A stretch of 20,149 nt of DNA from Candidatus Thorarchaeota archaeon (GTDB lineage Archaea; Asgardarchaeota; Thorarchaeia; Thorarchaeales; Thorarchaeaceae). The stretch spans positions 1 to 20,149 of the forward strand of contig PRDH01000032.1 of the NCBI GenBank assembly GCA_003345545.1. Direction: 5' to 3'. This document shows positions 1 through 20,149 of the stretch, in pieces (positions within the stretch are counted from its first letter, which is position 1; the number at the start of each line of letters is the position of its first letter). The position numbers and the translations under genes are program-made. Below the pieces are notes generated by a model. It was not told the DNA's origin. It saw only the letters and a list, made by a program, of their open reading frames with translations, and made no database searches.

Positions 1-3000
1 GCCTTCGCCCTTCTTCTTCTCTTTCCTCAAGAGTGACTCTACGTCCCTTACAAAGGCCTCCATAGAATCAGTTTCCTCTTCGGGCTCTGGCGTTTTCACT
101 GGTTCTTCTGCAACGGGTGTCGATTCCTTCTTCTGCTCTTTCGCAGGGACTGGTTTAGCCTCTTCCTCAATCTCCCAACTTATCTCTTCTTCAGGAGGCG
201 GCGTCGGTGGTGTTGCTTCTTCCCCTTCATGCCCGTCCGATAGACCCATCCCCTGACGCTGAAGGACCGTCTGCACGCCAACTGGTACAATCGCACCCTT
301 GTCCTGAAGGGCGAGAAGCCGGTCAAGAACCTGTGCCTCCGACAACTGTAACATCTCGGATAGTGGAGATAGGAGCTTCCTGAGATAAAACTCCGCTTTG
401 TTATCTCGTACTGCTGCGATGTAATCCAGAATTCTTGCATCTGTCTTTGATACTTTTTGAGTTGGTCCGAATCTATGAGGGAGCAACCAAGAGTAGTTGA
501 ATGCTGCATTCAGGGTCGATACAATCCATTCAGAGTCAAAACAATCAATCAGCCCTGACCAGCTTTCAAGGTCTCTCTCGTATTGATTTTCAAACAGCTC
601 AACAAAGAACTGGAGCCTGTCCTTCAAGAGAGGCGTCATCTCTCCCTCAAGGATGAGGATACCAATGATCTTCTCCCCGCTATAGCTGTTCAGTCTGAGC
701 CCGTGGTACTGAATCTCTTCAAGTGTGCCTCGCACGCCGTCACCCTTGATCTCGCCATATACACTCGTGATTGCTGCAATGAATCCACTGATGAGGTCCG
801 GCTGAATCCGCTCCTCTGTGAAGGGATGATAGAAGACGCATGTACCTCGGTCGAGATAGACTGCCATGAAGTGTCGAAGAGACTCTAGGTCGACAAACAT
901 CTGCAGCTGGTTTTCAAGCGATAGCTTGGCCTCTCTCTTCTTGGGTTTGACAACCCGATTGTAGGCAGCTACCACAATTCCAAGCAGAACAAAGGAACCA
1001 ATAAGGATGCGACCGACAGGTGACATGATGAAGAAGAGGAAAAGCGCCAGAATCGGATTCGTACCGGCACCAACTGTGATGGTTCTCGAGGCGGTCCAGA
1101 GCAGTCGACTGCCGCCAAAGTGAGCTTCCGCCTCTATTGACTCGATGGTTCCGCCTGGAACATAGAAACTCCAAGTTGCAACTCCATAGGAGTTGGTAAT
1201 GTCAGACTGAGCAGAACTATCAAGGACTTGGACTGTTCCGTTCTCAAATGTGATTGTCACTACGAAGTGGACAGTCGCTCCAACGACCGCCTCACTTGTG
1301 TCATTATAGCGCAGGGTGGCACTGAGCGATACAAGTTGTCCTTCTATGCTCGGATTCCCTTCAGACACCAATTCGAGATTGACTCCCCGTTTGCTATCTA
1401 CTGTCAACTCCACGGTATCTGTCGCTGCATTTGCGAGCGGAGCTGTAGCACTCACACTGAGAGTATATACTCCTGGAGCGATGTCCAGCACTATTTCAAT
1501 GACATAGAAACCTGCGGAGTAGACTAGAGTATAGTCAACACCATCTAGGGTCATAGTCACAGTGGCTCCAGTTATTGGTGTATGATGAAGCGTATCATTA
1601 TAGGTAACGGTGACTGTAAGGTTCCATTGTTCATATTCACTGCTCGGCGTATTGATTGAGATTACAGTTGTTGCCCGGACTGTCAGAGTAAGGAATATTG
1701 TGGTTGTCGTGTATCCATATCTGACCATGGTGACATTGACTGGGTAGACGTCCGCAGTCTGCGGCGGTGTGATAGCAATTGCATATTCGCCAGATAAGTA
1801 TTCAATCTCAGTACCGTTGATCGTGATGTATATGACGGCATCATCAATTGGCATGCCATTAGAGTCCTCGACAGTAATGGTCAGAGGAACATTCGTATCG
1901 TAGTCCGTGCTAGCCGAAGAACTTGCCCACGAGTTGCCAACTGATGGAATGTCTTCCATGACTATCAATGTCTGTGTCTCTTGCCCGGGACCAAATCCTA
2001 GACTGCTTGCTCGTATGGTGACTGAGGTCGTGCCAAGGTAGTCGCTACCATTCAGGGTGATTTCCCAACGTTCTGACAATGGATTATAGGTCATGTTCAC
2101 GGTTGGATGACCCACGAAGGTTACCCTGACCCATGTTTCATCGAATATTGGCTCAGAGTTGTAGTTGTAGGTGACGGAGATAGTGATATTCTCAATGAAT
2201 GTGATATTATAATCTGCAGGACTCCATGCCACAGAGAACTCAACACCCGGTTGGCTCGCAATACTGATCGTGAGTGTATCGTCATGTTGGGGGGCGTATC
2301 CTACCTTCCACGCACTTATGTTCAGCGAAATGATGCCTGGAATCTCAGTGAAATTCTCTCCATGAAGCTCTATCCAATACACCTGTCTGATTGCATCCCA
2401 GGCGAGATCATACGTGTTGGACTCATATGTCACATTCACCGAAGCATCTGTGATATTGATCCCGCTCAGGTCTCGATAGGAAACAGTAAGATTCGTGCTC
2501 TCAAGGTAGGTGATGCTACTGCTTGGAGACCAGCTCGAATTCAGCGGGAGAGTTTCGTAGGTAAGATCTACAGTTATCTCAATACTTCTGTTCTCAAGGG
2601 CGTATCCCACTCCGTATACGGTCAGATTATAGATACCACTAGTCATCGAAGATGTATTCACAATAGCTGTCCATCTGCCTCCTCCTACATTCACCATTGA
2701 CTTATTGATTGTACTCCCAAAGGTGTAGTTGAGGCGTGCTATTGGAGGATCCAGACCTCTTACAGGATAGATTTGGTCGAAGTCAATCCCAATGCTGAAA
2801 TTGTTGTCTGTAAATGCCTCGATGTAGTATTCATCTGCATCAAGTGATGTTGGATAGTAGACGAATACCTGTCTGACAAGATAGCCTGCTTCCAACCCAT
2901 TGGTCCAGTAGACTTCTATTGTGTGAGTTCCATTGTAGTCTGCAATCGAATCAATATCCCAAAGGTAGTTCGTGGCACCGTCAGATACTGATGCATTGGG

Positions 3001-4479
3001 GGGCGCATGGATGACGGATCCGCCATACCAAATTGTGAGGTTCGTCGTACCTGAGTTCATATGAGTGCCCATTCCATCCTCTACGCTGATATCGATATCA
3101 ACATCAACAAGAATACTGACCTTGTCTTGAATAGGTTTTGCGTCTGCATGGTTTGATAACTCAATTGAAGTCACGTAGTTGTCTGCAGTATTCGATAATG
3201 TCCACGCACCATTTGTCATATCGGTACAATGAATCGTAGTAGCAATCTCAGTATAATGTCCGTAATCTACTTGTGTGGCATTATACAGTCCCGTAGGGGT
3301 CCAATCATCCGGTACAGTTACATTCACATAACGATTGAGTGACCCTGAAAGCACTGGATATGTGAGCGGCATTGTCACATTCCATTGTATGTCCTCTCCG
3401 GAACTAGCAACGCGCCAAGATGCCGCTACTGATACACTCTTTGTGTATTTGAGCATGAGATCATAGCCTATCTCAACAGATTGATTTGATTGGAAATCAA
3501 TGACTATGATGTTGTCACTATTCGTGAATGTCCATGCAGTATCAGTCAACGTCGTGGCGTTACCTGAGAGATTAATCTGTTCAGCTGAGCTGTAGTCAAT
3601 TGCCGCGTTTGCGGTTTTATTCCATGGTGTATAGGTGTAATTGAGCATTGCCTCAGCCTGTTCGAGACCTGTATAGGCGTACCACGTACTCATTGGATCA
3701 CCAAATAAATGGTATCCGGTAGCCAGTCCAGTTACTGATTTTGAAGCGCTCCACCAAACCATATTGAAGAGCGACGTTCCAGGTACACCTACCATAGTGC
3801 TTCCATCAATAACGACATAATAGTAGGTGCTGGCATTTAGAATTGCATTGTCACCGGAGCAGTCATGTGTAGCGATTTGTTTTGAAAGGGGGTTCTGAAT
3901 CCAAGGCGTTATCCATCCTGTGACATTCTTTGCTTTGTCATTATAGACACTTCTCACGCCCAGGTAAGCTTGCCCATTAGACACATCATAGTAATTCGAT
4001 TTGTAAACGAGAGAGTAGTTCTCAAGTTTGCCATCGTGAGACCGTCCATAGAATGCTTGATAGAGAGCATTTGTGGTCAGCCCCTTCACAGTATCATTCC
4101 ATATCTGTATGTAGTCATTGGCGCCAGGAGTAATCCCCAGCGTTGCTCTCTCAGCTATCGCAGTCATGGAACTAGCTTTCACTTCTACAGCAACGAGAGT
4201 CCATCCAGATACCTGATATGCTGAAAGATTCAATTGGGCTCGATGGCTGAGGTCGTTATAGGAATTAGAAATTCCAAGATTGAGTCCGGTTATCTCTCTG
4301 GTAAAGTAACTGAGAATTGTTGTTGTATCATACCCACCTGCAGATGACTGTTCTCCTCTCCTGACAGCATAGACATCAGTGTTCTGGGCAGCCAGAGGAG
4401 TATCTGCTGAATTCGAGCTGATGATCGGGAATAGGAATATCACTAATGTAATCAGAGTCAAAATCTGTTTCCTTCTCAT
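1..4479 (-). CDS. Giant single-pass surface protein B (at least 1493 aa, 3' end outside window): signal peptide, head domain, ~6 Ig-like repeats, TM, cytoplasmic longin-like + winged-helix-like domains, Pro/Glu-rich tail
   Basis: Not in the ORF track. Hand translation from ATG at 4479 (upstream GAGCGAGGTTATGAT, SD-like GAGGT) is open to position 1. N-terminus MRRKQILTLITLVIFLFPIISSNSA is signal-peptide-like. Collinear with the 2967-aa protein (ALYQAFY..HDGKLENYS, WITP, THDC, YVVIDG, YTYTPWNKT, SNQSV, TNLTIW, NGLEAGY, YYPTS). Hydrophobic PILALFLFFIMSPVGRILIGSFVLLGIVVAAY (961-1053) is followed by basic NRVVKPKKREAK, then LRHFMAVYLDRGTCVFYHPF..PDLISGFIAAITSVYGEI..LEEIQYHGLRLNSYSGEKIIGILIL..LKDRLQFFVELFENQYERDLESWSG. 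Confidence 0.93.
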   Translation of the reverse strand, partial: MRRKQILTLITLVIFLFPIISSNSADTPLAAQNTDVYAVRRGEQSSAGGYDTTTILSYFTREITGLNLGISNSYNDLSHRAQLNLSAYQVSGWTLVAVEVKASSMTAIAERATLGITPGANDYIQIWNDTVKGLTTNALYQAFYGRSHDGKLENYSLVYKSNYYDVSNGQAYLGVRSVYNDKAKNVTGWITPWIQNPLSKQIATHDCSGDNAILNASTYYYVVIDGSTMVGVPGTSLFNMVWWSASKSVTGLATGYHLFGDPMSTWYAYTGLEQAEAMLNYTYTPWNKTANAAIDYSSAEQINLSGNATTLTDTAWTFTNSDNIIVIDFQSNQSVEIGYDLMLKYTKSVSVAASWRVASSGEDIQWNVTMPLTYPVLSGSLNRYVNVTVPDDWTPTGLYNATQVDYGHYTEIATTIHCTDMTNGAWTLSNTADNYVTSIELSNHADAKPIQDKVSILVDVDIDISVEDGMGTHMNSGTTNLTIWYGGSVIHAPPNASVSDGATNYLWDIDSIADYNGTHTIEVYWTNGLEAGYLVRQVFVYYPTSLDADEYYIEAFTDNNFSIGIDFDQIYPVRGLDPPIARLNYTFGSTINKSMVNVGGGRWTAIVNTSSMTSGIYNLTVYGVGYALENRSIEITVDLTYETLPLNSSWSPSSSITYLESTNLTVSYRDLSGINITDASVNVTYESNTYDLAWDAIRQVYWIELHGENFTEIPGIISLNISAWKVGYAPQHDDTLTISIASQPGVEFSVAWSPADYNITFIENITISVTYNYNSEPIFDETWVRVTFVGHPTVNMTYNPLSERWEITLNGSDYLGTTSVTIRASSLGFGPGQETQTLIVMEDIPSVGNSWASSSASTDYDTNVPLTITVEDSNGMPIDDAVIYITINGTEIEYLSGEYAIAITPPQTADVYPVNVTMVRYGYTTTTIFLTLTVRATTVISINTPSSEYEQWNLTVTVTYNDTLHHTPITGATVTMTLDGVDYTLVYSAGFYVIEIVLDIAPGVYTLSVSATAPLANAATDTVELTVDSKRGVNLELVSEGNPSIEGQLVSLSATLRYNDTSEAVVGATVHFVVTITFENGTVQVLDSSAQSDITNSYGVATWSFYVPGGTIESIEAEAHFGGSRLLWTASRTITVGAGTNPILALFLFFIMSPVGRILIGSFVLLGIVVAAYNRVVKPKKREAKLSLENQLQMFVDLESLRHFMAVYLDRGTCVFYHPFTEERIQPDLISGFIAAITSVYGEIKGDGVRGTLEEIQYHGLRLNSYSGEKIIGILILEGEMTPLLKDRLQFFVELFENQYERDLESWSGLIDCFDSEWIVSTLNAAFNYSWLLPHRFGPTQKVSKTDARILDYIAAVRDNKAEFYLRKLLSPLSEMLQLSEAQVLDRLLALQDKGAIVPVGVQTVLQRQGMGLSDGHEGEEATPPTPPPEEEISWEIEEEAKPVPAKEQKKESTPVAEEPVKTPEPEEETDSMEAFVRDVESLLRKEKKKGEG

Positions 4480-4570
4480 ATCATAACCTCGCTCGTGACT
4501 GCTACGTACACATTTGCCAGCCTGCAGCATTAACGATTTGATACTGCACCAATCATTATTACATTTTGAT

Positions 4571-4580
4571 GGTATAAACA
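4571..4580 (-). promoter_or_regulatory. Candidate archaeal TATA box for gene B
   Basis: Minus strand reads TGTTTATACC in an AT-rich 244-bp intergenic gap, about 95 nt upstream of the ATG. An alternative TATATA sits at 4634-4639. Confidence 0.3.
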
Positions 4581-4634
4581 AGCCAGTACTTTGTTATTTG
4601 CTGGTTTGGCAGAAGTTGATTTGCTTCTAATCAT

Positions 4635-4711
4635 ATATAGCTATCTTGGTCTTGTTCATGCTGAAGCTTGACGATAATTACCAAGTAATGATTTATTTTA
4701 GACAGCTATCT
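4635..4711. promoter_or_regulatory. Cluster of palindromes upstream of gene B (candidate operator sites)
   Basis: ATATAGCTATCT (4635-4646) and AGACAGCTATCT (4700-4711) each differ at one position from the perfect palindrome AGATAGCTATCT. Between them lies the imperfect inverted repeat ATAATTAC-CAA-GTAATGAT (4674-4692). Confidence 0.4.
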
Positions 4712-4723
4712 CGAACCCCTGTG

Positions 4724-7700
4724 CTAGCGCTTCTTGATTATTCGACGAGTCCCCTCCCGCACCTCATAGAAACCTGAATCCGAATCAAGCAAATCCTTCA
4801 CAATTGCGCTTGTCTTGCTTGATGATATCCCTAGACGCTTTGAAAGCTCTGATCTGGTCAGCCCAGATTCACTTACTGTGATTGCATCCTTCATTCTGTC
4901 GATTGGGTCAGCTATTGATATTGTTTCAACTGAACTCACCATGCTCGATGTTTCTGTTGATGCTATGACATTCCTTGATAGACTTCTTCTCCGTTTCATG
5001 ATGACAAGGCCTAGAACTGGCAATGAGACTCCTCCTACGACCATTGAGAGCAATATAGGGTCTCTGAAAATCACATCTAACAGACCCAATCCCCCAACCT
5101 TGATCTGCACAGTTCTTGTTTCTGACTCTGCCGGCCAGACAGATATTGACCCTGCATACAAGGCTGTAATCTCCAATCTCGTCGCATCTAGAGGAACACT
5201 AAGAACGACTGATGCAACTCCTGCGTCATCTGTTTCGATGACTTGAGTATGATTCCGCGAATCGCTCTGAGTAAATATCACGACGATGAGTGTTAGTGGA
5301 ACATAGCCCGCAGGCTGCTCATCGTGCTGCACTATCACCGAGATGAGCAATTCACTGCCAGTCAGTATCTCGCCAACGACATTGAGAGTTAGTGCATAGG
5401 TTGATTTTGGCAACACGTGTAGTTCGACCACGCCCACCTTCGCGTCGCAATCAACGGCGTTGGCAGAGATTGAGACAGTGTACGTACCCGGACTGATGTC
5501 ACTCGGTAGCTGGATCGACATGGTGTAGTTCTGCGTAGGTGCATCATACAGCAAGAAATACTGCACTCCCTCAAGTGTGGCCGTGATGACTGCCCAGTCG
5601 ATTGAAACATAATGCACAAGGTCCACGAGTTTTGCTTGAATGATGATTACTTCGTTTTCATACTGGGAGATCTGTGAAATCAATAAGAGTTCAGTAGGTA
5701 TAGGTCTGGCTTCGATTTCCACTATCCCGCTGCCGTTCAAATAGCCGGCAAGTTGGAGAGCAATATCAAAAGTATAGTTGCCCACATGGAGTGAGCTTCC
5801 ACTGATCTGCACCAAGTATGTGCCATTGCCCAGGTCCATGACGCTGTAGGGACCAATCCAATCTACAGAGTAAACCGATCCTGGTATCCCTGTACCTGTT
5901 CTATTGTCGATGTATGCAAATCGTAGTACAATGTCCTCCTGTGCATAAGCGATGTGGCTTGGACTGTATGCCACCTCCGTCGGAATGGGTAGAACACTGA
6001 TGGTAATGGCTTCGTATTGGCTTACAAACCCGAGGGCAGAAACTGTAATGGTCAAGTTGTGTATTCCAATACCGAGCTCCGTTCCTTGGAAGACTGCTGT
6101 CCAACGATCAGTGTCCCATGTGGTTGCTTGCTCAATCCCCCCAAGAGCCAGAATGAGCGTTGCATCTGGAACGAAGCTTGAATTGCTCATCTCGTAATAG
6201 ATGTACACAATCGTTCCTTCATCATGATAGATTGAAGAGCTGAGTACTGACACGTCTAGGGTTGTCGCTGCAGGGAATACGATGAGTGTATTAGAATACC
6301 ATCCATCCACATAACCTGTTTTGTTTGCGGTCACGGTGACATTCCATGCACCTAGACCGATTGCTGTTGCTCTGATACTAAAGTGCCACATTTCATCGAA
6401 TGAGCTATACGTCAGTTCATGTATCGTGCCATTGATTGAGAGGCGAACCGAAGCTCCTAGAATCGCCTTGTAGTCCTGGATGTACACCACGGATACGTTG
6501 ATGATATCAACATAGGTCGGCGCTAGACTAGAGGGCTGCCATGTAACAAGGTACATGTTTGCAGCAGGGCTAATGTTTAGCCCCATGGTAATATGTGTCT
6601 GCAGTGCATATCCGTACAACCAAGCACTGATAGACGCGTCATATGTGCCAATCCCTGTCTGATTTCCAAAAATCGACACTCGCCATGCACCAGAAGAGTA
6701 TGCAAGATTGTAAACTCGACTATTAATCGTTACATTTACGGTTGCGTTTTCTGGCACATCGCCATCATAGAATGTGTAATCTACGGTGACATTGAGAGAG
6801 TCAGTGAATTCGATGGTGAGGTTGAATGGGCTCCAAGTTACCAATAAGGTATTGGTCGTGACTTCGTTGACCGTAAGGGTTTCTGCAGACTCCGCAAAGC
6901 TATATCCATACGCCTGTGCTCGGACTACGATGGAGTGAGGACCTAAATCGAGATAGACTCCAGTCAGACTGACTACCCAGAAGCTGCCCGATTCTAACAA
7001 GGAAAGCGTTACACTGCCATCAATCGTGATATTAGCAATGACACCGCCTTGTGGTACAATGCTACCAGTGCCTGCATATGAGTAATTTGCTGAGAGGTCC
7101 ATCTGTCCAAGGTAGTCAATAGTAATAGCATTCCAAAGCAACTCGAGACTGGTTGATGCCTCAATGATATCAAAGCTGATGTTCGAGTTGGTGGCGAAGT
7201 CATATCCATACTTGCTAATGTTCACCACAACTAGATGATGTCCTAGATCGAATGTGTTGTTGAACTCGAACCAGTAAACGCCGTTCGTGCCTTTGAGAGC
7301 ATACAGCACCCCATCAATAGTAATCGTCTTCAGTATTGCTCCTTCTATCAGCCTTCCGTAATTGTCTCTGTATTCGACCTCCAACACAATACTCTGAGTC
7401 CAGTCAAGAGTTTCGGATATCCATGACGCAATTGCTGAGGTTGGCTCTTCATGAATCGCCAAGGAAGTGGAAGCGGACTGGTCAACATAGACGCTTCCTG
7501 ATGCTTCAATATCCATGATGAAAGAGCCCATACCTGGTGGGTCCATATTGCCATAGAAAGCAAGGCAATAAGCTTGTGCAGATGCATTCCATGCCAATGA
7601 CCAAGAGTCACTACCAATTGACACATCTATTATCGCAGAAGGCACTGGTGATCCGTTGCTCATACGATAGTAGACCATGAGAGTAGTGTGTTCTACGAAA

Positions 7701-10700
7701 CTGATGTCATTGTCACTCGACCAGCTCACTTGAATGGTAGTTGGGTCCCTCCCGACCTCAAGCGTTTCACTGAGGTCCTGTGCAAATACAAATCCATACT
7801 TTGATGCTACTATGGCAAGACCGTGTATCCCAAATCCAGGTACAATGTCTGAGCCATTGAATCTTATGCCATAGGCTTCCTCCGTGGCATTCCAATAGAG
7901 CTTCAACGTCAACAGCTCAATGGTAACATTTACTGGTGCATCAAGTATTGGCGTTCCGTTACTCATCGAATACTCTACGAATAGGTAGGTGTATTCAAAG
8001 TAGGTGATGGTGTTTTGGTATGGATTACTCCATCGTGGTGTGAGCATTGTTGGTTCCTGGACAATCTCTAGGCTCAATGTATTATCATTCAGTGAATCGA
8101 ATCCATCTCTTCCTGCACGGATTTCGAGTTCATGATATCCCAGACCTGGAAGTGAATCAGAGCCGTTGAACATCAGACGATAGGTCTTACTTACTTCGTC
8201 CCAGGCGAGGTCCCAATGATTCGAGCCAATTGTGATATTCACAGATGCAGAGGCAATCGCGGAACCATTTGACATTGTGTAGTTTACTACAAGGATGGTT
8301 GAGTGCACATAGGTGATTATACCACCTCCTATCCAGTAACTCTGAATGTTCACTGATTCCGAGAGGATGACAAGCGTACGGGAGTTGTCCGTTGCATCCT
8401 TGAATCCCTCGTGGAGGAGGTATGTCGCTGAGATATAGAGAACAAAACTGCCCAGTCCGGGCGGGTCCATGTTGCCAGTAAAAGTGTACACGTAGAGTTT
8501 CGATGTTTCATTATACACAGCTTCCCATGTGTGTGTACCTATTCTAATAGTAACGAAAGCATCGATTACAGGCAATCCACTTTCTGTAATTGAAAAGTTG
8601 ATGAATAGAGATGCACTCTCGACGTATGTTATTGTGTTGTTACCGTCAAGCCACCGCGCCTGGATGGAAGTGTCTTCCTGTACAATTGTAAGCGTCTGTG
8701 TAATATCCGAGTGCGCAAGATGGTTCGCCTTCCAGGCAAGCACAAAGAACGTGTGAGGTCCAAGCGCCGGACTTGGTATATCTGCGCCAGTGAATGCAAT
8801 CTCATAGGCTCCCGAACTGCTGTTATACTGAGTCGGGTAGGGTAACACATAGGAGGCATTCACTGTTGCAGTCAGAACTGGAGAACCGTTCAAGTAGCGA
8901 TAGTAGATTCGGAAAACAGTCACATCGAGATAGGATATTGTGCTGCTTGGAATCCATTCAAACGTGATATAGGTGTCCTCAAGTCGTATCGTGAGTTCTT
9001 CCGTGGAGTCCATTGCTGAAATGTATCCAAAGCCTGACGCATATATTGTAACATCAAAAGTCGAATAGTACAATCGAGAGTCATTCCCGTGAATTAGGGT
9101 TTCATATGCGGAGCTTGAGCTGTTCCATACGAGATTCCAAAGATATCCGTTTATGGTCGCATTGAGCACTCCTGTTGCTATGAGCGAGCTATTGCTCATG
9201 ACGAACTGTACAGAAAGCCTTGTTTCACTGAAGTATGTGATGTTGTTGCCGCCAATCCATAAGATAATCAGATCCGTGGATTCCAACTGCTTGGTCAAGC
9301 TCTCAGCAGAGTTAGTCTGGCTCTGAAAATCCGCCAGATGAGCCACGACCAGAACCGGATACGTCGTGAAGTCAAGCGAGCCATCCATTCCAGTGAACGT
9401 TCTTTCGTACGCGTGAGTCACTGAGTTCCAAACAAGAGCAAGCGTGACTCCATTTATTGTGACATTGACAGTTGCGTCCGTAATCCAGGTGTCGTTATAC
9501 ATCCTGTAGAAGGCCTGAAGAGTTGTCTTCTCAACATAAGTTATGGTATCTCCATTCGTCCAGGCAAGATTAAGCAAGGTCGGTATGACTGGAAGTATGA
9601 CTTCTTCATCACTGTTCGTCTGTTCAACAAAGCCGTATTCCCATGCCCTGACCGTCAGTGAATGAGTTCCAACGCCTGGAACCGGATCTGATCCGTTGAA
9701 TCTTAGCTGGTAATACCCTTCGGTTTGATTCCAGGTGAGTTTCCATGTATCATCATCAATTGTTACATTCACTTCAGCATCCAACACTGGTACGTAACTC
9801 CCATATGTGTATTCGACAATTAGGTATGAATAGCTGAAGAAGTCAGGGTTGTTGATTTCATTCGCCCAATGCACTGACAGATATGTGGGTTCTCTTCTCA
9901 GAACTATCTCTTGGGATGAGTTTGATGCTGAATCGAATCCATATCTTGATGCCTCCACTGTCACAGGAAAAGCGCCTAGGATGGGCAGATCGACATCACC
10001 ATCAATAAGAAGATAGTATCTCTGGGCTGTCGAGTTCCATAGCAATGCCCATGGAGCTCCCGCGAACGTGGCGATGACTGTTGCGCCAGTGATTGCGCTA
10101 TTATTGCTGTTCATTAGGTATCTTATTGAGAGTATGCAGCTGTTAGTGTATGTTATGTTATTGGTTGGAATCCACTCTACAGTCAACGTTGTCGGTTCGT
10201 TTACTATGACAAGAGTCTTGCTGCCATAGGCTGTGATGAAGCCAAATCTTGATGCATTGATGATGAGAACATGGCTTCCAAGACCTGGAGGATTATCACT
10301 GCCTGAGAACTCCAGTCGATAGGTTCCCGTGCCTTCGTCCCATGTCAGATTCCAAGTCATAGAATCGATAGTGACTTGGACGAATGCTCCAGCGACTGGT
10401 GCTCCATTGGACATTGTATAGTTGACTGAGAGCAGTGTTGAGCCAACATATGTAATGGTGGATAAGCCCACCCATACTGTGTCGATTGAGGTTGGTTCCT
10501 GTCTCAGAATCAGATCTTGCGTCACATCTATTCGATTGACGAAACCGTACCTGCCAGCTCGCATTGACAGATCATGCCTGCCAAAACCAGGAGGAATATC
10601 TGAGCCATTGTACATGATGACATAGGAGGATGAGCCATCCCATGCCAGTGTCCAAGCATTCCCATCAATTGTGACATTTACATTGGCTCCCATGATGGGC

Positions 10701-13627
10701 GTTTCATCGCTCATCTTGTATGTAACAGTCAGAGTTGTCTGTTGCACGTACGTTATGTTGTTGCCCATTGACCAAGTTATTACGAGTGAAGTGGGCTCCA
10801 GAATCAACGCCAGAACCTCGGAGTCATCAAATCCGTTTCCAAAGCCTGCTTTTGCTGCCACCACTGTTACAGAATGAGCACCGAAGCCGGGATTCACATC
10901 GCTACCATTCAGAGTAAGGTCATACGTCTTGGCCCCTGGATTATAGTGAAGTGTCCAGAATCCCGATCCAATTGATACATTCACTATGGCTCCGACTACG
11001 GTGGAGCCATCTGACATCGTGTAGTTCACAATAAGCACTGTAGACTGTATGTAGGTAATTGTGGTTCCATCAGACCATGTGAGTGTTAGCGACGTCGGTT
11101 CCTCTCTCAGCGTTAGTGAATAGCTTGCATCTTCCTGGCTCTCGTAGCCTAGTCTGCTTGCCAGTATCATGAGTAAGTGAGTCCCAAATCCAGGATTGGT
11201 GTCTGTCCCATTGAACTGAATCCAATATGTACGACTAGTGCCATTCCACTGTAGATGCCAAGTGCTTATTCCATCCGTCACATCGACAGTGGCAAGTGGA
11301 ATAGCAGTGCTGTTAGACATTCGATATTCAACGGATAATATAGAGCACTCAACGAATGTGATGTTTGTCCCGTGCGACCAATTCACAGAGAGCTCCGTGT
11401 ACTCCTCGTGTATGGTGATGTCCTCTGTATCGTTTGATTGGGCCTTGTAGCCAGCCTTCCATGCTCGAATTACTAAATCATAGGTGTCAAATCCCGAAAA
11501 TGTGTCTGTGCCATTGACTGTAATTCTGTAGAGACTTAGGTCTCCGTCCCATGTGAGGGAGAGGACGTTTCCATCAATCGTTACATTTACTGTAGCATCC
11601 GTAATCGCTGTGCCGCCGGCTCTGCGGTATTCGACCAATAGGTCTGTGGCCTGAACATATGAGATGTTATTGGTAGCTGACCACTCGACAGTTAGTGGCT
11701 CCGTGTCATGAATAAGAGTGACGAAGATGGTGAGGCTTTGGTTCTGGATTGCATAACCTTCCGCATAAACAATGATTGAGAATGTGCCATTTGTTCTTTC
11801 GGCTGTTGATACTGAGGCTGTCCATGTTCCATTATTATGGTCAAATAGGCTCGTGTTTGATCCACTAGCAAACGAATAAGCGACAGTAGCTACATCTCCA
11901 TCTAATCCTTGAGGTGTGAAGGTATCCTCAAGATAAACACTGATGGAGAAGGCACTTTCTGTGAATGCATTAATCTGATAGTTCAATGCATTAAAGGAAG
12001 TCGGATAGTATAGAGTCAGGCTCTTGCTTCGATAACCTGCTTCGGTTCCGTTACTCCAGTGCTCTTCTATAGTGTAGAGTCCATTGAATGTTGATGTTTC
12101 GCTTATATTCCACAGATAATGTGTTTTCCCATTTACTACTGACGCGTTGCTCGGAGCCCATATCCTGGTGCCTAGATGCCAGATTGTGAGATTGGTAAAG
12201 CCTGTTGCGACTGGGTCTAGATCCAAATCTGAGAGGGTAGAATTGATATCAATGTTGACAGTCATGTTTGTTTTGGTAGTGATTTCAGTATTGTCCAGCT
12301 GATTAAATGTGCGAATTGACTGAAGAAAATTGTGTGAAGACGAAGTCAATGTCCATGTATCGTTCGCCATGTTCGAACAACGAATTGTTCCATTAAGGCT
12401 CTCATAATCTCCATGGTTGTAACTTGGCGTCGAAGTATTATAGAGCCCCGTAGCAGTCCATGATGTAGGGACGGAAACATTGAGATATCTCTGCTCAGAG
12501 AGAGCTGGATATTCAAGTTCTGTGGTGACATTCCAATTGACCGCATCTCCAAATCCCACAACGTTCCAGCTTGAAAGAGATTGGATTGATTTACGATATA
12601 AAAGTTCCATGCTGAATGAAATATCAACCGACTGATTTGAATTGAAATCAATTGCCACTATATTGGAATCATCATTGAACACCCACTCCAATCCATCAAC
12701 AGGCGAGCTATTCCCTTTGATGTCAATCTGTAATGGATCAAAAAACGTGAGAGCTGCGTTTGTTGTTTTATTCCACGGCGTATACGTGTACTGTAGTTCC
12801 GCTTCTCTGCGGCCTAACCCTACATATTGGTACCATGTGTTATCATTACGATAGTGATATCCTGTGTCTGTTCCAGTTACATCCTGAGCACGCCAGTAAA
12901 TCCAGTTAAACAGCCAAATCCCTGAGCCGATATCTACTCCTATCATTGTTGTTCCATCTATGACAACAAAGTAAGGCATGCTCGCATCAAGTATTGCCGC
13001 ATCAGAAGCACAGTCATGTGTCATAGTCGTGTATGAACTGATCTGGTTGAAAGGCGTAATCCAACTGGTAACGTTTGTTTCTGGATCATCATAAGCGCTC
13101 CTCACAACCAAGTATGCTTTTCCCAGTGCTGTCGAATAGTATGGAGCCTTATAGGCAAAAGAATAGTTCTCGAGTCTACCATCATGAGGCATATTGTAAA
13201 ACTCTTGATACAGTGCATCAGTGACTGCGCCAAGAGTACTATTCTGAATCTGTATGTCACTATTGGGTGTAATTCCCGTTGTTTCACGCTCTGCAGCTGC
13301 TGTTATCGTCATAACATCCATTTCAACACCGTAAAGATCCCAACCCGAAATATGGAAATCTGTAAAATCAATGAGCCCTGTATGTTGGCTCGTGCTTGAA
13401 TATGAGTTGAGAATTCTCAGGGATTGATTATTCACGATTCGGGTCATAAAGGCAGTAGTATTTCTAGTAAGTCCTAGACCGCCCGCAGATGCTAACGTAG
13501 AAGAATCAAGTAATTCAAGGTCTTGTCGGCCTTGTTCAGATGATCTATTCTTCTCTGTGGTAGTTGCTGTAGGTGTGATGAACAGAATGACGAGAATGAC
13601 GGCTACAAGTGCAAATCGTTTCATCAC
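4724..13627 (-). CDS. Giant single-pass surface glycoprotein A (2967 aa): signal peptide, head domain, ~23 Ig-like repeats, TM, C-terminal winged-helix-like domain
   Basis: ORF track. GTG at 13627 is followed by ATG at 13624, with SD-like AGGTGG upstream. Signal peptide MKRFALVAILVILFITPTA. Dense N-x-S/T sequons. TM PILLSMVVGGVSLPVLGLVIM followed by KRRR (positive-inside). C-terminal DPIDRMKDAITVSESGLTRSELSKRLGISSSKTSAIVKDLLDSDSGFYEVREGTRRIIKKR fits helix-HTH-beta-wing. Confidence 0.95.
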   Translation of the reverse strand: MMKRFALVAVILVILFITPTATTTEKNRSSEQGRQDLELLDSSTLASAGGLGLTRNTTAFMTRIVNNQSLRILNSYSSTSQHTGLIDFTDFHISGWDLYGVEMDVMTITAAAERETTGITPNSDIQIQNSTLGAVTDALYQEFYNMPHDGRLENYSFAYKAPYYSTALGKAYLVVRSAYDDPETNVTSWITPFNQISSYTTMTHDCASDAAILDASMPYFVVIDGTTMIGVDIGSGIWLFNWIYWRAQDVTGTDTGYHYRNDNTWYQYVGLGRREAELQYTYTPWNKTTNAALTFFDPLQIDIKGNSSPVDGLEWVFNDDSNIVAIDFNSNQSVDISFSMELLYRKSIQSLSSWNVVGFGDAVNWNVTTELEYPALSEQRYLNVSVPTSWTATGLYNTSTPSYNHGDYESLNGTIRCSNMANDTWTLTSSSHNFLQSIRTFNQLDNTEITTKTNMTVNIDINSTLSDLDLDPVATGFTNLTIWHLGTRIWAPSNASVVNGKTHYLWNISETSTFNGLYTIEEHWSNGTEAGYRSKSLTLYYPTSFNALNYQINAFTESAFSISVYLEDTFTPQGLDGDVATVAYSFASGSNTSLFDHNNGTWTASVSTAERTNGTFSIIVYAEGYAIQNQSLTIFVTLIHDTEPLTVEWSATNNISYVQATDLLVEYRRAGGTAITDATVNVTIDGNVLSLTWDGDLSLYRITVNGTDTFSGFDTYDLVIRAWKAGYKAQSNDTEDITIHEEYTELSVNWSHGTNITFVECSILSVEYRMSNSTAIPLATVDVTDGISTWHLQWNGTSRTYWIQFNGTDTNPGFGTHLLMILASRLGYESQEDASYSLTLREEPTSLTLTWSDGTTITYIQSTVLIVNYTMSDGSTVVGAIVNVSIGSGFWTLHYNPGAKTYDLTLNGSDVNPGFGAHSVTVVAAKAGFGNGFDDSEVLALILEPTSLVITWSMGNNITYVQQTTLTVTYKMSDETPIMGANVNVTIDGNAWTLAWDGSSSYVIMYNGSDIPPGFGRHDLSMRAGRYGFVNRIDVTQDLILRQEPTSIDTVWVGLSTITYVGSTLLSVNYTMSNGAPVAGAFVQVTIDSMTWNLTWDEGTGTYRLEFSGSDNPPGLGSHVLIINASRFGFITAYGSKTLVIVNEPTTLTVEWIPTNNITYTNSCILSIRYLMNSNNSAITGATVIATFAGAPWALLWNSTAQRYYLLIDGDVDLPILGAFPVTVEASRYGFDSASNSSQEIVLRREPTYLSVHWANEINNPDFFSYSYLIVEYTYGSYVPVLDAEVNVTIDDDTWKLTWNQTEGYYQLRFNGSDPVPGVGTHSLTVRAWEYGFVEQTNSDEEVILPVIPTLLNLAWTNGDTITYVEKTTLQAFYRMYNDTWITDATVNVTINGVTLALVWNSVTHAYERTFTGMDGSLDFTTYPVLVVAHLADFQSQTNSAESLTKQLESTDLIILWIGGNNITYFSETRLSVQFVMSNSSLIATGVLNATINGYLWNLVWNSSSSAYETLIHGNDSRLYYSTFDVTIYASGFGYISAMDSTEELTIRLEDTYITFEWIPSSTISYLDVTVFRIYYRYLNGSPVLTATVNASYVLPYPTQYNSSSGAYEIAFTGADIPSPALGPHTFFVLAWKANHLAHSDITQTLTIVQEDTSIQARWLDGNNTITYVESASLFINFSITESGLPVIDAFVTIRIGTHTWEAVYNETSKLYVYTFTGNMDPPGLGSFVLYISATYLLHEGFKDATDNSRTLVILSESVNIQSYWIGGGIITYVHSTILVVNYTMSNGSAIASASVNITIGSNHWDLAWDEVSKTYRLMFNGSDSLPGLGYHELEIRAGRDGFDSLNDNTLSLEIVQEPTMLTPRWSNPYQNTITYFEYTYLFVEYSMSNGTPILDAPVNVTIELLTLKLYWNATEEAYGIRFNGSDIVPGFGIHGLAIVASKYGFVFAQDLSETLEVGRDPTTIQVSWSSDNDISFVEHTTLMVYYRMSNGSPVPSAIIDVSIGSDSWSLAWNASAQAYCLAFYGNMDPPGMGSFIMDIEASGSVYVDQSASTSLAIHEEPTSAIASWISETLDWTQSIVLEVEYRDNYGRLIEGAILKTITIDGVLYALKGTNGVYWFEFNNTFDLGHHLVVVNISKYGYDFATNSNISFDIIEASTSLELLWNAITIDYLGQMDLSANYSYAGTGSIVPQGGVIANITIDGSVTLSLLESGSFWVVSLTGVYLDLGPHSIVVRAQAYGYSFAESAETLTVNEVTTNTLLVTWSPFNLTIEFTDSLNVTVDYTFYDGDVPENATVNVTINSRVYNLAYSSGAWRVSIFGNQTGIGTYDASISAWLYGYALQTHITMGLNISPAANMYLVTWQPSSLAPTYVDIINVSVVYIQDYKAILGASVRLSINGTIHELTYSSFDEMWHFSIRATAIGLGAWNVTVTANKTGYVDGWYSNTLIVFPAATTLDVSVLSSSIYHDEGTIVYIYYEMSNSSFVPDATLILALGGIEQATTWDTDRWTAVFQGTELGIGIHNLTITVSALGFVSQYEAITISVLPIPTEVAYSPSHIAYAQEDIVLRFAYIDNRTGTGIPGSVYSVDWIGPYSVMDLGNGTYLVQISGSSLHVGNYTFDIALQLAGYLNGSGIVEIEARPIPTELLLISQISQYENEVIIIQAKLVDLVHYVSIDWAVITATLEGVQYFLLYDAPTQNYTMSIQLPSDISPGTYTVSISANAVDCDAKVGVVELHVLPKSTYALTLNVVGEILTGSELLISVIVQHDEQPAGYVPLTLIVVIFTQSDSRNHTQVIETDDAGVASVVLSVPLDATRLEITALYAGSISVWPAESETRTVQIKVGGLGLLDVIFRDPILLSMVVGGVSLPVLGLVIMKRRRSLSRNVIASTETSSMVSSVETISIADPIDRMKDAITVSESGLTRSELSKRLGISSSKTSAIVKDLLDSDSGFYEVREGTRRIIKKR
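5100..12010 (-). repeat. Array of ~23 diverged ~100-aa Ig-like beta-sandwich repeats in protein A
   Basis: Recurring consensus EPT.L...W....ITY...T.L.V.Y.MSNG..I..A.V.VTI...W.L.W......Y...F.GSD..PG.G.H.L.I.A...G[FY]. I counted 22 units plus one variant first unit by eye. The repeats are visible at protein level only. The Ig-like fold is inferred from unit length and beta-strand pattern. Confidence 0.85.
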
Positions 13628-13669: not shown

Positions 13670-13711
13670 ATATACATATTCTCTGTTTTTCCTTTGAAAA
13701 GGAGAGCTGTC
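13670..13711 (-). promoter_or_regulatory. Candidate promoter of gene A: purine-rich BRE-like stretch, TATA-like element and palindrome
   Basis: Minus strand reads GACAGCTCTC-CTTTTCAAAGGAAAAACAGAGAATATGTATAT. The palindrome GAnAGCTnTC is at 13702-13711, and the TATA-like ATGTATAT is ~45 nt upstream of the start. Confidence 0.35.
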
Positions 13712-13747: not shown

Positions 13748-14257
13748 TTACGTATAGTAGGACGGACCTGCGTCTGTGGCGTCTGCCGGTTTTGGTCCTG
13801 TTTGCCCGGTGATGTCATTCAGGACTGCAATGACCATGTCGATTGCACTATGAAGGCGCCTCGTCGTGTCCCAGAGTTTCTGTTCTGAGAACGCATCATC
13901 ATAGATTCTGTCTGAAACAACAAAGCCCGGTCCTGGCGGTTGAGGCCCTGGTTGCCCCGGCTTTGGTTGAATAAATCCCAGGTTCACATTCTGTGTGAAG
14001 CTGAACTTTAGCGCCTGCATCTGGAACTCTCGGAGTTTCTCAACATTCAGGAGCTTCTGGTGTTGCGGTGAGATCATAATCTGTGCTTCTATCTGAATGT
14101 ACTTCTGGTCATTCGGACGGACCACGGTGAAGAAGAACCGCATGAACTTGACCTTATACAGAAACTCCGCTCTCGGATCTGAGATGCTCTCGACCTTAGT
14201 GCCCTCTCTCGAGAACCAGTCTCGCACGGTTTTCTTGATGTGCTCCAACTCTTCCAC
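13748..14257 (-). CDS. DUF2299-like archaeal conserved protein (169 aa)
   Basis: GTG start with GAGGAG SD. The pattern 'V.DW...EG.KVE...DP.A.F...V......VVRP.......I.ISP.H' and 'RIYDD.FS.Q' resembles DUF2299 from recall, not from a search. Confidence 0.7.
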   Translation of the reverse strand: MEELEHIKKTVRDWFSREGTKVESISDPRAEFLYKVKFMRFFFTVVRPNDQKYIQIEAQIMISPQHQKLLNVEKLREFQMQALKFSFTQNVNLGFIQPKPGQPGPQPPGPGFVVSDRIYDDAFSEQKLWDTTRRLHSAIDMVIAVLNDITGQTGPKPADATDAGPSYYT

Positions 14258-17754: not shown

Positions 17755-19278
17755 TCACTTCTGCGCCTGAAGAGCAAGGTAGACTACGCCCCCTGTGAAC
17801 GCGGACACAATGCGTTTCACTCTATGCCTTTCATCAAGGCTATCCAAGTCTCCGCGAGAGATGCTGATTCTTGTTGCTTCCTCAGCGAAGTATCGAGAGA
17901 CCCATGGCAGATCGCCGAGTGCTGGTCCAAGATTCAATATCTGAAGGATATGAAACGAGGTTTCAAAGCATAGTTGCTCGGTGAACTTGTCCAGCTGCGC
18001 ACCGAGCGAGTCGGTATGTTTTTCGATCAGTTCCATTATTGCATCAAACGAATTGACTATCTCTTCCTCAAGATCATCTGCAGCTAGGGAACTTGACTGC
18101 GTTTTTTCAAGTCGTCGTCTCAAGTTGGCGAGGACAACTCGAAAACGCCTCTCGGGCGAGATCCGAGCCTTCTCGCCAAATCCAGCTCTTCTCTTGCAGT
18201 CCGATAGCTCCTCGTAGAGCTGCAGTGGTCTATCTTCGGATTCCATCACTCTGGCAGCGATCTCAATGTTCTCGCCAGCCAGAATATCGATGAACGCTTC
18301 AAGTGCTTTGTTCTTTCCACTGCCTAGACTCATCCTAAGTAGTCCGCTGTAGTAATCAGCTATTTCTCTCACCAGAAATGACGTGAATTCTCTCTCGGTC
18401 CATACCTGCTCTTTCCCTTGAATCGTTGAGAAGAATAGAGAACAAGTGGTCATTTTGGATGCGGCTCTACGCAGCACATCAATTGTTGATATTAGCCTTC
18501 CAAAGACTCTCGCGGTTCCCACTAGAGGCCAGTCGAATGGACTACTTGAGCCGCCTCCTGAGATCTGGTACGCAAGAGATGCTCTTGTCTGCATTGTGAT
18601 GATATAGAGTGTGGTTTCCTCAATGAGTCTGTGTTCTGGGAGGTTGAAGACCTTATCAAGATCGAAGGGGCAATTGGATGCCTTCATCACCATTAGTGCA
18701 ATCAATGCTCGGATTCTGTTTTTCCTCATCGAATCGTCGATTACATACCCGCTGTCAAGACCTGAGATTTCGAAGTACTCCTCGACAAATCCTCTATTGA
18801 TTAGTTCTAGCGACATGATCCTGTTGAGCACAGCACGCGACTCGTCTGAGGTCAACAAATTCTCCACTAGTGTTTCTAATCCTTGGTTTTCAATTTCACT
18901 GGGAAGAATAGTGGGACGTGCGCAGATTTTCGGAAGTATCATAATCCAGAGCATGGCGAGTGCACTACGTTTCCCAGCGAGAATCGCCTGCTCTTCTGTT
19001 TCCAGATAATCAATATTCGGTTTGAATCCTGCCCAGACTGGCACTGACATTAGAAACTTGACCTCGTCATCGTCCTGCAAAGCCCGTACGAGGATGTGCC
19101 TTTTCACAGATTCGAGGAGGTTAAACGGTTTGGCCCTCGTTTCAGAGGAGCTGGCAATGCCCAATTCATCACGAATTTCAATAGCATCCTTCTTCTGGAA
19201 CTCAGAGATTACTCCGAAGGCATAGCTCTGATGAAGATTATTGACAGCAAACTTGACAATCTCTGTCAGTTCTTTCAT
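17755..19278 (-). CDS. Hypothetical, mostly alpha-helical protein (507 aa)
   Basis: Long ORF. Its ATG overlaps the upstream stop (TGATG at 19276-19280). No motif recognised. Confidence 0.85.
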   Translation of the reverse strand: MKELTEIVKFAVNNLHQSYAFGVISEFQKKDAIEIRDELGIASSSETRAKPFNLLESVKRHILVRALQDDDEVKFLMSVPVWAGFKPNIDYLETEEQAILAGKRSALAMLWIMILPKICARPTILPSEIENQGLETLVENLLTSDESRAVLNRIMSLELINRGFVEEYFEISGLDSGYVIDDSMRKNRIRALIALMVMKASNCPFDLDKVFNLPEHRLIEETTLYIITMQTRASLAYQISGGGSSSPFDWPLVGTARVFGRLISTIDVLRRAASKMTTCSLFFSTIQGKEQVWTEREFTSFLVREIADYYSGLLRMSLGSGKNKALEAFIDILAGENIEIAARVMESEDRPLQLYEELSDCKRRAGFGEKARISPERRFRVVLANLRRRLEKTQSSSLAADDLEEEIVNSFDAIMELIEKHTDSLGAQLDKFTEQLCFETSFHILQILNLGPALGDLPWVSRYFAEEATRISISRGDLDSLDERHRVKRIVSAFTGGVVYLALQAQK

Positions 19279-20149
19279 CAGTCGCCCTCCTGTGATAGCC
19301 TATCTAAGACCTCTTCCTTGGATGTCCGCTTCTTGAGACCGGTTTTGATGAAGTGAAGCATCTCGATAATCGCTTCTTCCACGGTCGTTTCAGTTCCTGC
19401 TCCCATGAGTTTCGTGAATACAAGGCAATTCAGTTGACTCTCTAGCTCAGTTTCATCAGGACATGAAACTCCAGATTCACCTCTAAGATAGAGTGCCCGA
19501 TTGAGCACGCGGTAGTCGACTTCGACTACCCTGCCGTAGGGGTGTTTCTCATTTCTTACGTAGATACGCCGGCGTGGTGCCAATCCAAAGAAGTCTATAT
19601 CTTCCAAGAGCTTCATGAGCCTGGCCTGAAGAAAGGAACTGGATGCGTAGGCTCTCCTGAGTTCTGAGAGAGGCATATGTCCCGATAGACGCCGTGCCAG
19701 CTCAATCTCCTTGGAGTAGCTCATTTCTTCAACGGTTAGACCAGAGTCCTTCAGAAAATCCTCAGAGTGAAAACTTCCAAGTGTGTCAACTGTGATCTGG
19801 ACCGACTTTCCCTTACCCGTTTCATCGAGCATGAATCCCTTACTGATGTCAAGAGACCGAACATCCTCTGGACGGAAGCTGGATAAGGTCATTCCAAACC
19901 TCTCGTTCTGAGTCACCTCAATCAGGATTGCATCTACCGATGTTTCTTGACCTGAGCAGTAGAAGATCCCTGGAATGAAGGCATACAGGTTCATAGAATC
20001 TTGGCCGTCTAGCAAGCTGTCAAGAGGAATCGAGCCATGAGGTTTGTCATTTGAGGCCTCATTCTCTTTGCTTTCACTGGATGCCAAAAGGGCATCATCA
20101 ACTTCACCCTCACCTTGTCCAGTCTCTAGTTGATCTTCCAGTTTCGAGT
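19278..20149 (-). CDS. Hypothetical protein, 5'-truncated (at least 289 aa visible)
   Basis: The frame stays open past the track's TTG at 20087 to the window edge (SKLEDQLETGQGEGEVDDALLASSESK...). An acidic linker is followed by a globular C-terminal region. No family recognised. Confidence 0.85.
   Translation of the reverse strand, partial: SKLEDQLETGQGEGEVDDALLASSESKENEASNDKPHGSIPLDSLLDGQDSMNLYAFIPGIFYCSGQETSVDAILIEVTQNERFGMTLSSFRPEDVRSLDISKGFMLDETGKGKSVQITVDTLGSFHSEDFLKDSGLTVEEMSYSKEIELARRLSGHMPLSELRRAYASSSFLQARLMKLLEDIDFFGLAPRRRIYVRNEKHPYGRVVEVDYRVLNRALYLRGESGVSCPDETELESQLNCLVFTKLMGAGTETTVEEAIIEMLHFIKTGLKKRTSKEEVLDRLSQEGD

Follow-up and report, generated by a model that had tools for sequence, protein, structure and literature searches.

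A giant single-pass surface protein of a Thorarchaeote ends in a cytoplasmic winged helix of DNA-binding sequence type

Within a 20,149-nucleotide stretch of DNA from Candidatus Thorarchaeota archaeon (contig PRDH01000032.1 of assembly GCA_003345545.1, positions 1 to 20,149, referred to below as the window), the longest open reading frame (ORF) encodes a single-pass giant surface protein, here called protein A, that carries at its end a cytoplasmic winged helix of DNA-binding sequence type. The topology of the protein, the fold, sequence type and conservation of the terminal domain, and its modular use are directly supported by the results that follow. Judging by this composition, protein A may link contact outside the cell to gene control inside it, and the explanation that we tentatively prefer is that its winged helix-turn-helix (wHTH) binds DNA from the membrane, as a transmembrane transcription regulator (TTR) would.

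The ORF spans positions 4724-13627 on the minus strand, as do all the features of protein A given here, and runs for 2967 codons from a GTG at 13627; the database copy of the protein (2966 amino acids, aa) begins at the ATG one codon past it (13624). With either start codon, residues 1-25 (13553..13627) have the composition of a signal peptide or signal anchor, that is, a basic n-region (KR), a hydrophobic stretch and a Thr-rich c-region. The head and neck of the ectodomain follow (approximately residues 26-642; 11702..13552), a variable part that is paralogous to the head of the neighboring gene B, and then comes a stalk of about 22 immunoglobulin-like repeats (residues 643-2857; 5057..11701) with a period of about 100 aa anchored at residue 643 and a Pfam MG4 match at residues 2766-2825. 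The stalk is rich in sequons and predicted to be extracellular: residues 1-2865, which take in head and stalk, hold 95 N-x-S/T sequons against 35 ± 4.6 in shuffled sequences, and the tail holds none. A single transmembrane (TM) helix, with the pattern GG...S.P, occupies residues 2858-2877 (4997..5056), as indicated by its position in the sequence, by the alignment of orthologues and by hydropathy scans of the relatives, most of which share the layout of a TM helix followed by an RRRR-type cluster. In protein A this stop-transfer cluster is KRRR (residues 2878-2881; 4985..4996), which by the positive-inside rule puts the C-terminus in the cytoplasm. Because sequons are in excess outside and absent from the tail, and because of the KRRR cluster, we assigned a type-I topology, with the glycosylated ectodomain out and the last 90 residues in. 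Past the cluster lie a disordered and poorly conserved linker of 26 aa, 11 of them Ser or Thr (residues 2882-2907; 4907..4984; predicted local distance difference test, pLDDT, <50), and, at the extreme C-terminus, a winged helix of 60 aa (residues 2908-2967; 4727..4906) made up of helices H1 and H2, a turn, H3 and a beta-hairpin wing. The protein ends in the basic cluster RRIIKKR, and the stop codon is at 4724-4726. The initial annotation of this DNA had described a 2967-aa adhesin-like protein ending in a membrane-tethered winged helix, on the strength of a TM helix, KRRR, a Ser/Thr-rich linker of about 25 aa, an HTH (helix-turn-helix) string and a basic wing; all the strings it quoted were recovered in the translation, and the HTH_24 match and the fold described next agree with it.

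Sequence families, the HTH pattern and structure all bear on what kind of domain the tail is. The HTH string GLTRSELSKRLGISSSKTSAIVKDL and the wing FYEVREGTRRIIKKR are both in the translation. Scanned alone, the tail matches Pfam HTH_24 with 24.4-25.9 bits (cut-off 21.9; E 7.5e-6 to 2e-5), and within full-length protein A the same match drops to 18.9 bits, under the cut-off. HTH_24 was also matched in 23 of 42 members of the tail family (best E 1.9e-8), the other matches of family members being to DUF7343, MarR_2 and TrmB, all of them DNA-binding wHTH families and all weaker than HTH_24 for the tail of protein A; the Pfam scan gave no match to Trans_reg_C in this tail. The Dodd-Egan pattern is an established HTH sequence pattern, and the HTH string fits the classical arrangement, being hydrophobic at positions 4, 8, 10 and 18, small at position 5 and Gly at position 9. 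AlphaFold2, run with an alignment of eight orthologues, folded residues 2906-2966 with pLDDT 77-89 and left the TM helix and the linker disordered; in the numbering of the 168-residue model the elements are helices 107-119, 126-133 and 137-150 and strands 154-159 and 162-167. In a structure search of all against representatives, the top neighbor was the wHTH of DriD (VIA Z 10.6, root-mean-square deviation 1.2 Å over 65 residues), followed by NolR (Z 10.0) and then ArsR and MarR types, which are DNA-bound regulators (Z 10.6-9.5), and close behind, by 1-2 Z units at most, came Z-alpha (9.5), ScpB (9.4), UFL1 (9.3) and ESCRT-II (8.5; 3cuq_B). The predicted fold of the tail is thus a canonical winged helix, and the fold alone does not tell what it binds. 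Foldseek of the 168-residue model against the PDB gave no match at E <= 0.001, its weak matches being wHTH regulators and ribosomal protein S25, a null that we ascribe to most of the model being disordered. A profile search of PDB sequences with the tail returned weak HTH matches alone (E >= 0.015), and the look-alikes of the tail in the ESM Atlas, all below 0.9, are small archaeal HTH_24, DUF7343 and MarR proteins that we treat as leads.

The tail is kept in eight full-length orthologues of 2933-3476 aa. The question of selection was approached through identity by region, since synonymous sites are expected to be saturated at 63-77% protein identity. Identity to protein A is 35-74% in the head, 49-77% in the stalk, 45-65% in the TM helix, 10-60% in the linker and 63-73% in the winged helix. 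Among the positions invariant in the eight are G-x-T-R where H2 begins, S-x-S-K where H3 begins and, in the wing, E...R-x-G. Over 41 tails, the conserved exposed positions (T-R and S-x-S-K, at the N-terminal ends of H2 and H3 respectively, and R-x-G...R in the wing) coincide with the usual DNA-contact elements, and the mean net charge of the tail is +2.9 per 60 aa. Of the points on which the initial annotation had staked its reading, the fold is predicted for the tail, and the recognition helix and wing are conserved in the eight. One orthologue, P0007, comes from a public record (CAYGWX010000068.1; L034) labelled 'uncultured bacterium'; the gene family is otherwise one of Thorarchaeota, and the label of this metagenome-assembled genome is probably wrong.

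To see how the domain is used elsewhere, its 60-aa profile was searched against 1.84 billion representative proteins, which gave 61 matches at E <= 0.001. In about 40 of these, which are 67 to 3362 aa long, the domain forms the very C-terminus, most commonly in the order TM helix, RRRR, Ser/Thr/Pro-rich linker and winged helix. The terminal domain may stand directly after the TM helix, after an extra module of about 60-100 aa (P0026, P0047, P0052 and P0065) or after a longin-like domain, the last being the layout of the P0058 type, a small group of proteins listed by NCBI under 'Candidatus Thorarchaeota archaeon'. Since it is the middle part that varies, these single-pass receptors form a set with the winged helix as its invariable last module. 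Protein A itself has no longin domain, and only the 26-aa disordered linker separates KRRR from the winged helix. We also observed that the extra module of P0026, P0047, P0019, P0052 and P0065 resembles a second HTH-like unit followed by a hydrophobic strand; in P0065 a sub-threshold EAP30 match (18.7 bits) extends across both HTH-like units, which hints at a tandem winged-helix arrangement.

To sample the phyletic range, the domain profile was run against 301 genomes from the whole phylum. It had matches in 72 of the 76 genomes of the organism's own GTDB family and in 5 of the 224 others, the latter weak and partial. Two classes of protein account for these matches. In one of them the tail stands on large ORFs, of up to 3371 codons (genome G120), in about 15 of 25 genomes of the genus, our own included, and in about eight genomes of three other genera, so that about 23 of the 77 genomes of the family carry it. 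The other class, to which most of the 72 matches belong, is a soluble protein of about 125 aa that joins an N-terminal coiled coil to a wHTH and is encoded by almost all genomes of the family (own copy in G000:C29, at L002:929-1303, minus strand).

This soluble relative passes the cut-offs of MarR_2 and HTH_IclR. Aligned with hhalign, the tails alone and eleven soluble proteins match with a probability of 94.4% (E 9e-8; 34% identity over 58 columns), sharing the pattern G-L-T...G-x-S-x-S/R-K/R-T-S...R-D/E-G-R...I-R-F-R, and in the eleven the recognition helix, K-S-R-S-R-T-S-E-V-L-N, is invariant and basic. Its gene forms a two-gene operon with that of a 110-aa charged protein (L002:929-1720), found in nearly every genome of the family, and upstream of the operon two to four TTGTCGATTR decamers recur with an exact 10-bp period in 8 of 10 genomes (L050-L059) from several genera. 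In the organism's own genome, the sole exact match to the two-decamer pattern is upstream of this operon. Because the family cut-offs are passed, the recognition helix is invariant and basic and the decamers are phased, the soluble relative looks like a real operator-binding factor, and it is probably autoregulating. As the soluble form is the more widely distributed, the receptor tails probably derive from the same stock. The two differ in what precedes the wHTH: the soluble protein has the coiled coil, probably a dimerizer, and decamers before its own operon, whereas protein A has the TM helix and the giant ectodomain in place of the coiled coil and no such repeat nearby. The candidate operator of the soluble relative was also sought at genes A and B and rejected there, as TTGTCGA occurs five times in the window against 3.2 expected, and in neither promoter.

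We propose, as a possibility rather than a probability, that protein A is a one-component protein of the transmembrane transcription-regulator kind. Outside the cell, a glycosylated fiber of about 2,850 aa would carry the variable head; the TM helix and the flexible 26-aa linker would hold the minimal wHTH at the inner face of the membrane; and the wHTH would bind nucleic acid, most likely DNA and most likely while tethered, following the logic of ToxR and ArnR. Pairing or clustering of ectodomains would supply the dimerization that the 60-aa domain lacks. The tail may bind DNA targets, and the ectodomain may have an effect on it. The proposal draws on the sequence type, the HTH pattern and the top structural neighbors, all of which point to DNA-binding wHTH families, on the relationship of the domain to a probable operator-binding factor, on the conserved residues at DNA-contact elements and on the positive charge. 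Moreover, since one-component regulators join a sensor to an output, the succession of a variable module and a terminal wHTH was counted in its favor. Action while tethered seems likelier than release, because the reach of a 26-aa linker is comparable to that of known TTRs and archaeal TTRs are documented (ArnR).

Demey et al. (2023; PMC10269533) count as a TTR any protein that has a predicted DNA-binding domain and one or more predicted TM regions. By this published definition the sequence of protein A, with its TM helix at 2858-2877 and its HTH_24 tail, makes it a TTR, one that would regulate transcription from the membrane. Archaeal TTRs such as ArnR/ArnR1 of Sulfolobus are documented in the same survey, which names no Asgard archaea (0 occurrences) (PMC10269533). 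Like ToxR, TcpP, CadC and ArnR/ArnR1, protein A is a single-pass protein with an extracytoplasmic part and a predicted wHTH on the cytoplasmic side. Nevertheless, its wHTH is C-terminal on a type-I protein, whereas those of ToxR and CadC are N-terminal and of the OmpR type; outside it has a glycosylated repeat fiber of about 2,850 aa where TTRs have a small sensor; and its wHTH is a minimal 60-aa unit, HTH_24/MarR-like, with no dimerization or HAMP-like element. As wHTH type, protein end and topology all differ, protein A does not belong to the ToxR/CadC/TcpP group, whose members have an OmpR/PhoB-type wHTH, a type-II topology and a small periplasmic sensor. Another likeness is offered by Asgard single-pass surface proteins that combine a longin-like domain with a winged helix, for which we found no describing paper: they share with protein A the glycosylated Ig-repeat ectodomain, the one TM helix and a conserved cytoplasmic module, but have a longin-like domain where protein A has the 26-aa linker alone. 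Our literature search likewise found no paper on an archaeal surface protein of such size with a cytoplasmic wHTH, or on the Thorarchaeota tail family.

Several results weigh against DNA binding from the membrane. The tail of protein A has no dimerization element. Compared with the soluble relative, its recognition helix is down two of three basic residues (K-S-R-S-R-T-S becomes I-S-S-S-K-T-S), a Lys of the wing is replaced by Glu, and Ser, Gly or Ala stand at the predicted base-contact positions. Receptors with very different ectodomains have nearly the same recognition helix, and one common ligand fits this as well as one DNA motif does. Judged by sequence, the closest relatives of the winged helix are those behind the longin-like domain in P0058-type receptors (hhalign probability 98.3%, E 1.2e-14, 60 columns). 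The contig of protein A has no match to the two-decamer pattern, and no operator-like motif conserved past close orthologues was found before gene A or gene B. One orthologue, P0009 (L008:4077-12878; two member sequences), is without the RRRR cluster and the whole 26-aa linker, so that its TM helix would lead straight into the winged helix; this could be a real deletion or an assembly artefact. Finally, an A-like ORF of 2,996 codons from the same genus (L035; genome G087, G087:C13:37169-41101) has no winged-helix tail: its TM helix is followed by RRRWKKSSS and a stop, nine residues past the helix, with a B-like gene next to it. By this comparison of ORFs, the winged-helix tail is accessory to A-like proteins.

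Much of this would be expected if the winged helix were instead a protein-docking module that ties the inner end of the receptor to a shared partner in the cytoplasm, for instance the cytoskeleton, a small-GTPase platform or the tail of the protein encoded by gene B. We regard docking as somewhat doubtful in itself and as almost as likely as DNA binding by a tethered regulator. Longin-like domains are known as modules of protein-protein signaling, and it is behind such a domain that the closest winged helices sit. Gene B (1..4479, minus strand, its last few codons beyond the window end) is a shorter paralogue of gene A that encodes a head, about six stalk units, a TM helix and a cytoplasmic part made up of a very conserved longin-like domain and a different winged helix. 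In 15 of the 16 loci with enough downstream DNA, from several genera, the gene that comes after the tailed one, on its strand, has a B-like head, and it has a longin tail wherever it was read to its end; the heads of the two genes co-vary within a locus, as detailed below. In a docking scheme, A and B would make up a pair of receptors that hold the same head at two distances from the cell. The poverty of H3 in basic residues and its near identity on all receptors also suit a docking module, and protein-binding winged helices lie near the DNA binders in the structure search (the ScpB, UFL1 and ESCRT-II values given above). Two relatives of the tail have sub-threshold EAP30 matches (20.3 and 18.7 bits against a cut-off of 26.8). 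Against this, all the above-threshold sequence matches of the tails are to DNA-binding wHTH families, and the neighbors are metabolic genes. The ESCRT-II-type module that the initial annotation had offered as an alternative was not supported by sequence: ESCRT-II (Vps22/25/36), CdvB and the tail share the winged-helix fold, and winged-helix and coiled-coil-plus-winged-helix proteins serve as interaction modules in archaeal ESCRT systems (PMC11188069), but ESCRT-II has a tandem pair and protein A a single domain; an EAP30 protein that clears the Pfam cut-off is encoded in the genome, as would suit an Asgard archaeon, and the tail has no detectable similarity to it (hhalign 0.24%); and neither a match of the tail to EAP30/ESCRT Pfam families nor an ESCRT gene near gene A (neighbors POR, CN-hydrolase and DUF2299) was found. 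Profilin, searched as another Asgard marker, gave no match, its controls being silent as well. The winged helices of A and B are likewise not detectably similar (hhalign probability 1%). A complex prediction of the winged helix of A with the cytoplasmic longin-plus-winged-helix part of B scored 0.01 against a mark of 0.32, without controls, and counts neither way, and an AlphaFold2 model of a longin-plus-winged-helix receptor tail (six alignment rows) gave pLDDT 71-93 for the winged helix, about 50 for the longin domain and <50 for the linker, with a predicted TM-score (pTM) of 0.42, so that its interface is unusable.

Two further explanations concern what becomes of the tail. In a scheme like that of Notch or SREBP, a ligand or a pull on the fiber would have the protein cut within the TM helix or close to it, and the wHTH fragment of 60-90 aa, once set free, would act as a soluble transcription factor. 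The initial annotation had raised such intramembrane cleavage as one option, in view of the helix-breaking GG and Pro in the TM helix; the segment VVGGVSLPVLG does lie inside it, small-residue or helix-breaking TM helices recur across the tail family, and the linker is accessible, being disordered. All eight orthologues keep the G and the S, but the Pro is substituted in one, and the Gly and Pro are not specific; the linker, for its part, shows no conservation and is missing from one orthologue. Site-2 proteases are known to act on type II helices; for type I helices the enzymes are rhomboids or those of presenilin type, so that protein A, with its N-terminus out and C-terminus in, would need one of the latter. 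The genome has site-2 (M50) proteases (two to three matches) and a rhomboid candidate just short of significance (22.5 bits, cut-off 22.6), which says nothing specific, as both are housekeeping families found in all 14 control genomes; PF06550 and PF04258, of presenilin/SPP type, had no match in this 93%-complete genome, the PF04258 negative being a weak one as its controls were silent too, and no protease gene was found in the conserved neighborhood of gene A. Besides, the released 60-aa monomer would be without a dimerization element. SREBP, ATF6, MYRF and Notch resemble protein A by analogy alone, not by homology: in each, one TM helix joins a large extracytoplasmic part to a cytoplasmic one concerned with gene control, and Notch also has a long repeat ectodomain with type-I topology. 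In Notch, however, the intracellular domain does not bind DNA itself, and protein A has no dedicated protease and no nucleus to reach. We consider release by cleavage improbable, and of the overall reading of the initial annotation the membrane-tethered winged helix of DNA-binding type is supported and the cleavage logic is not. Quite unlikely, too, is a tail without a signaling role, either an element for biogenesis, sorting or stability (a handle for a targeting factor, or a binder of acidic lipids) or a dispensable add-on drifting to loss. The accessory nature of the tail speaks for it, with the same-genus protein in the same A-B arrangement that ends shortly after the TM helix, as do the lack of an A-like match to a membrane-proximal query in three other genomes of the genus, the presence of the large-ORF tail in only some of the family genomes and the basic C-terminal cluster. 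The winged helix is, however, 63-73% conserved while the adjoining linker drifts, and it is kept on receptors of many sizes in several genera, which argues for a selected, specific function rather than decay.

If the tail of protein A does bind DNA, it would represent a new layout of one-component regulator in archaea, in which a giant adhesin-like fiber is wired directly to a minimal wHTH, and it would do so in the closest archaeal relatives of eukaryotes, for which next to nothing is known of how contact with partners or surfaces is sensed. If it docks proteins, it would be a Thorarchaeota-specific adaptor module common to longin-bearing receptors, which would bear on how eukaryote-like signaling platforms were first coupled to the cell surface. 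The 60-aa domain is small, soluble when excised and readily tested in vitro.

The relationship between genes A and B deserves a description of its own. The head of gene B (approximately 2700-4400) is of the same type as that of A, and the heads of A-like proteins fall into at least three types. In the window and at the L004 and L007 loci, the head of A is 44-46% identical to the B head of its own locus and about 35% identical to A heads of other types. Since the head of A is nearer to its own B head though stalks of A are about 75% identical across these loci, the alignments suggest that heads are exchanged, or converted in concert, between neighboring A and B. A further idea, which we rate as a long shot, is that A and B are a paired outside-in unit that presents the same exchangeable head at two heights, on about 22 and about six stalk units, and feeds two cytoplasmic outputs, a membrane-tethered DNA-binding winged helix in A and a longin-type GTPase-platform module in B. 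One surface contact would then reach both transcription and eukaryote-like switch signaling. In its boldest form, tension on a fiber of about 100 nm would control the tail, a Notch-like mechanosensing without a nucleus. The pair with matched heads offers a concrete experimental system once a Thorarchaeote or a surrogate host is available.

The DNA before the two genes was also inspected. The intergenic region between A and B (4480..4723, minus strand) holds, in an alignment of five loci, a conserved TATA-like block, AAGATAGCTATATATG, which probably forms a promoter of B's own. A putative autoregulatory palindrome, GANAGCTNTC, was considered before A and B and rejected as evidence: it has two matches where 0.5 would be expected, and a count of two is reached in 9 of 100 shuffles. 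Its positions were noted at 4636-4645, 4701-4710 and 13702-13711; orthologous loci do not keep the copy at 4701, and the one at 4636-4645 lies within the TATA-like block. The block ACAGCTCTCC before A is conserved among close orthologues alone, and was rejected as evidence because these have 77% identity over the intergenic DNA in any case.

The gene immediately upstream of A, which shares its strand, is a DUF2299 gene (13748..14257, minus strand; Pfam PF10061, 48.5 bits) that is kept in all the orthologous loci read and whose protein has a Pro/Gly-rich C-terminal part. The gene order POR genes, CN-hydrolase, DUF2299, A and B is kept even in the most distant orthologous locus. Further along the window, two overlapping genes without a Pfam family (17755-20087, minus strand) code for proteins of 507 aa and about 269 aa, and the pair is kept in synteny in the distant locus L004, as 504 aa and 380 aa.

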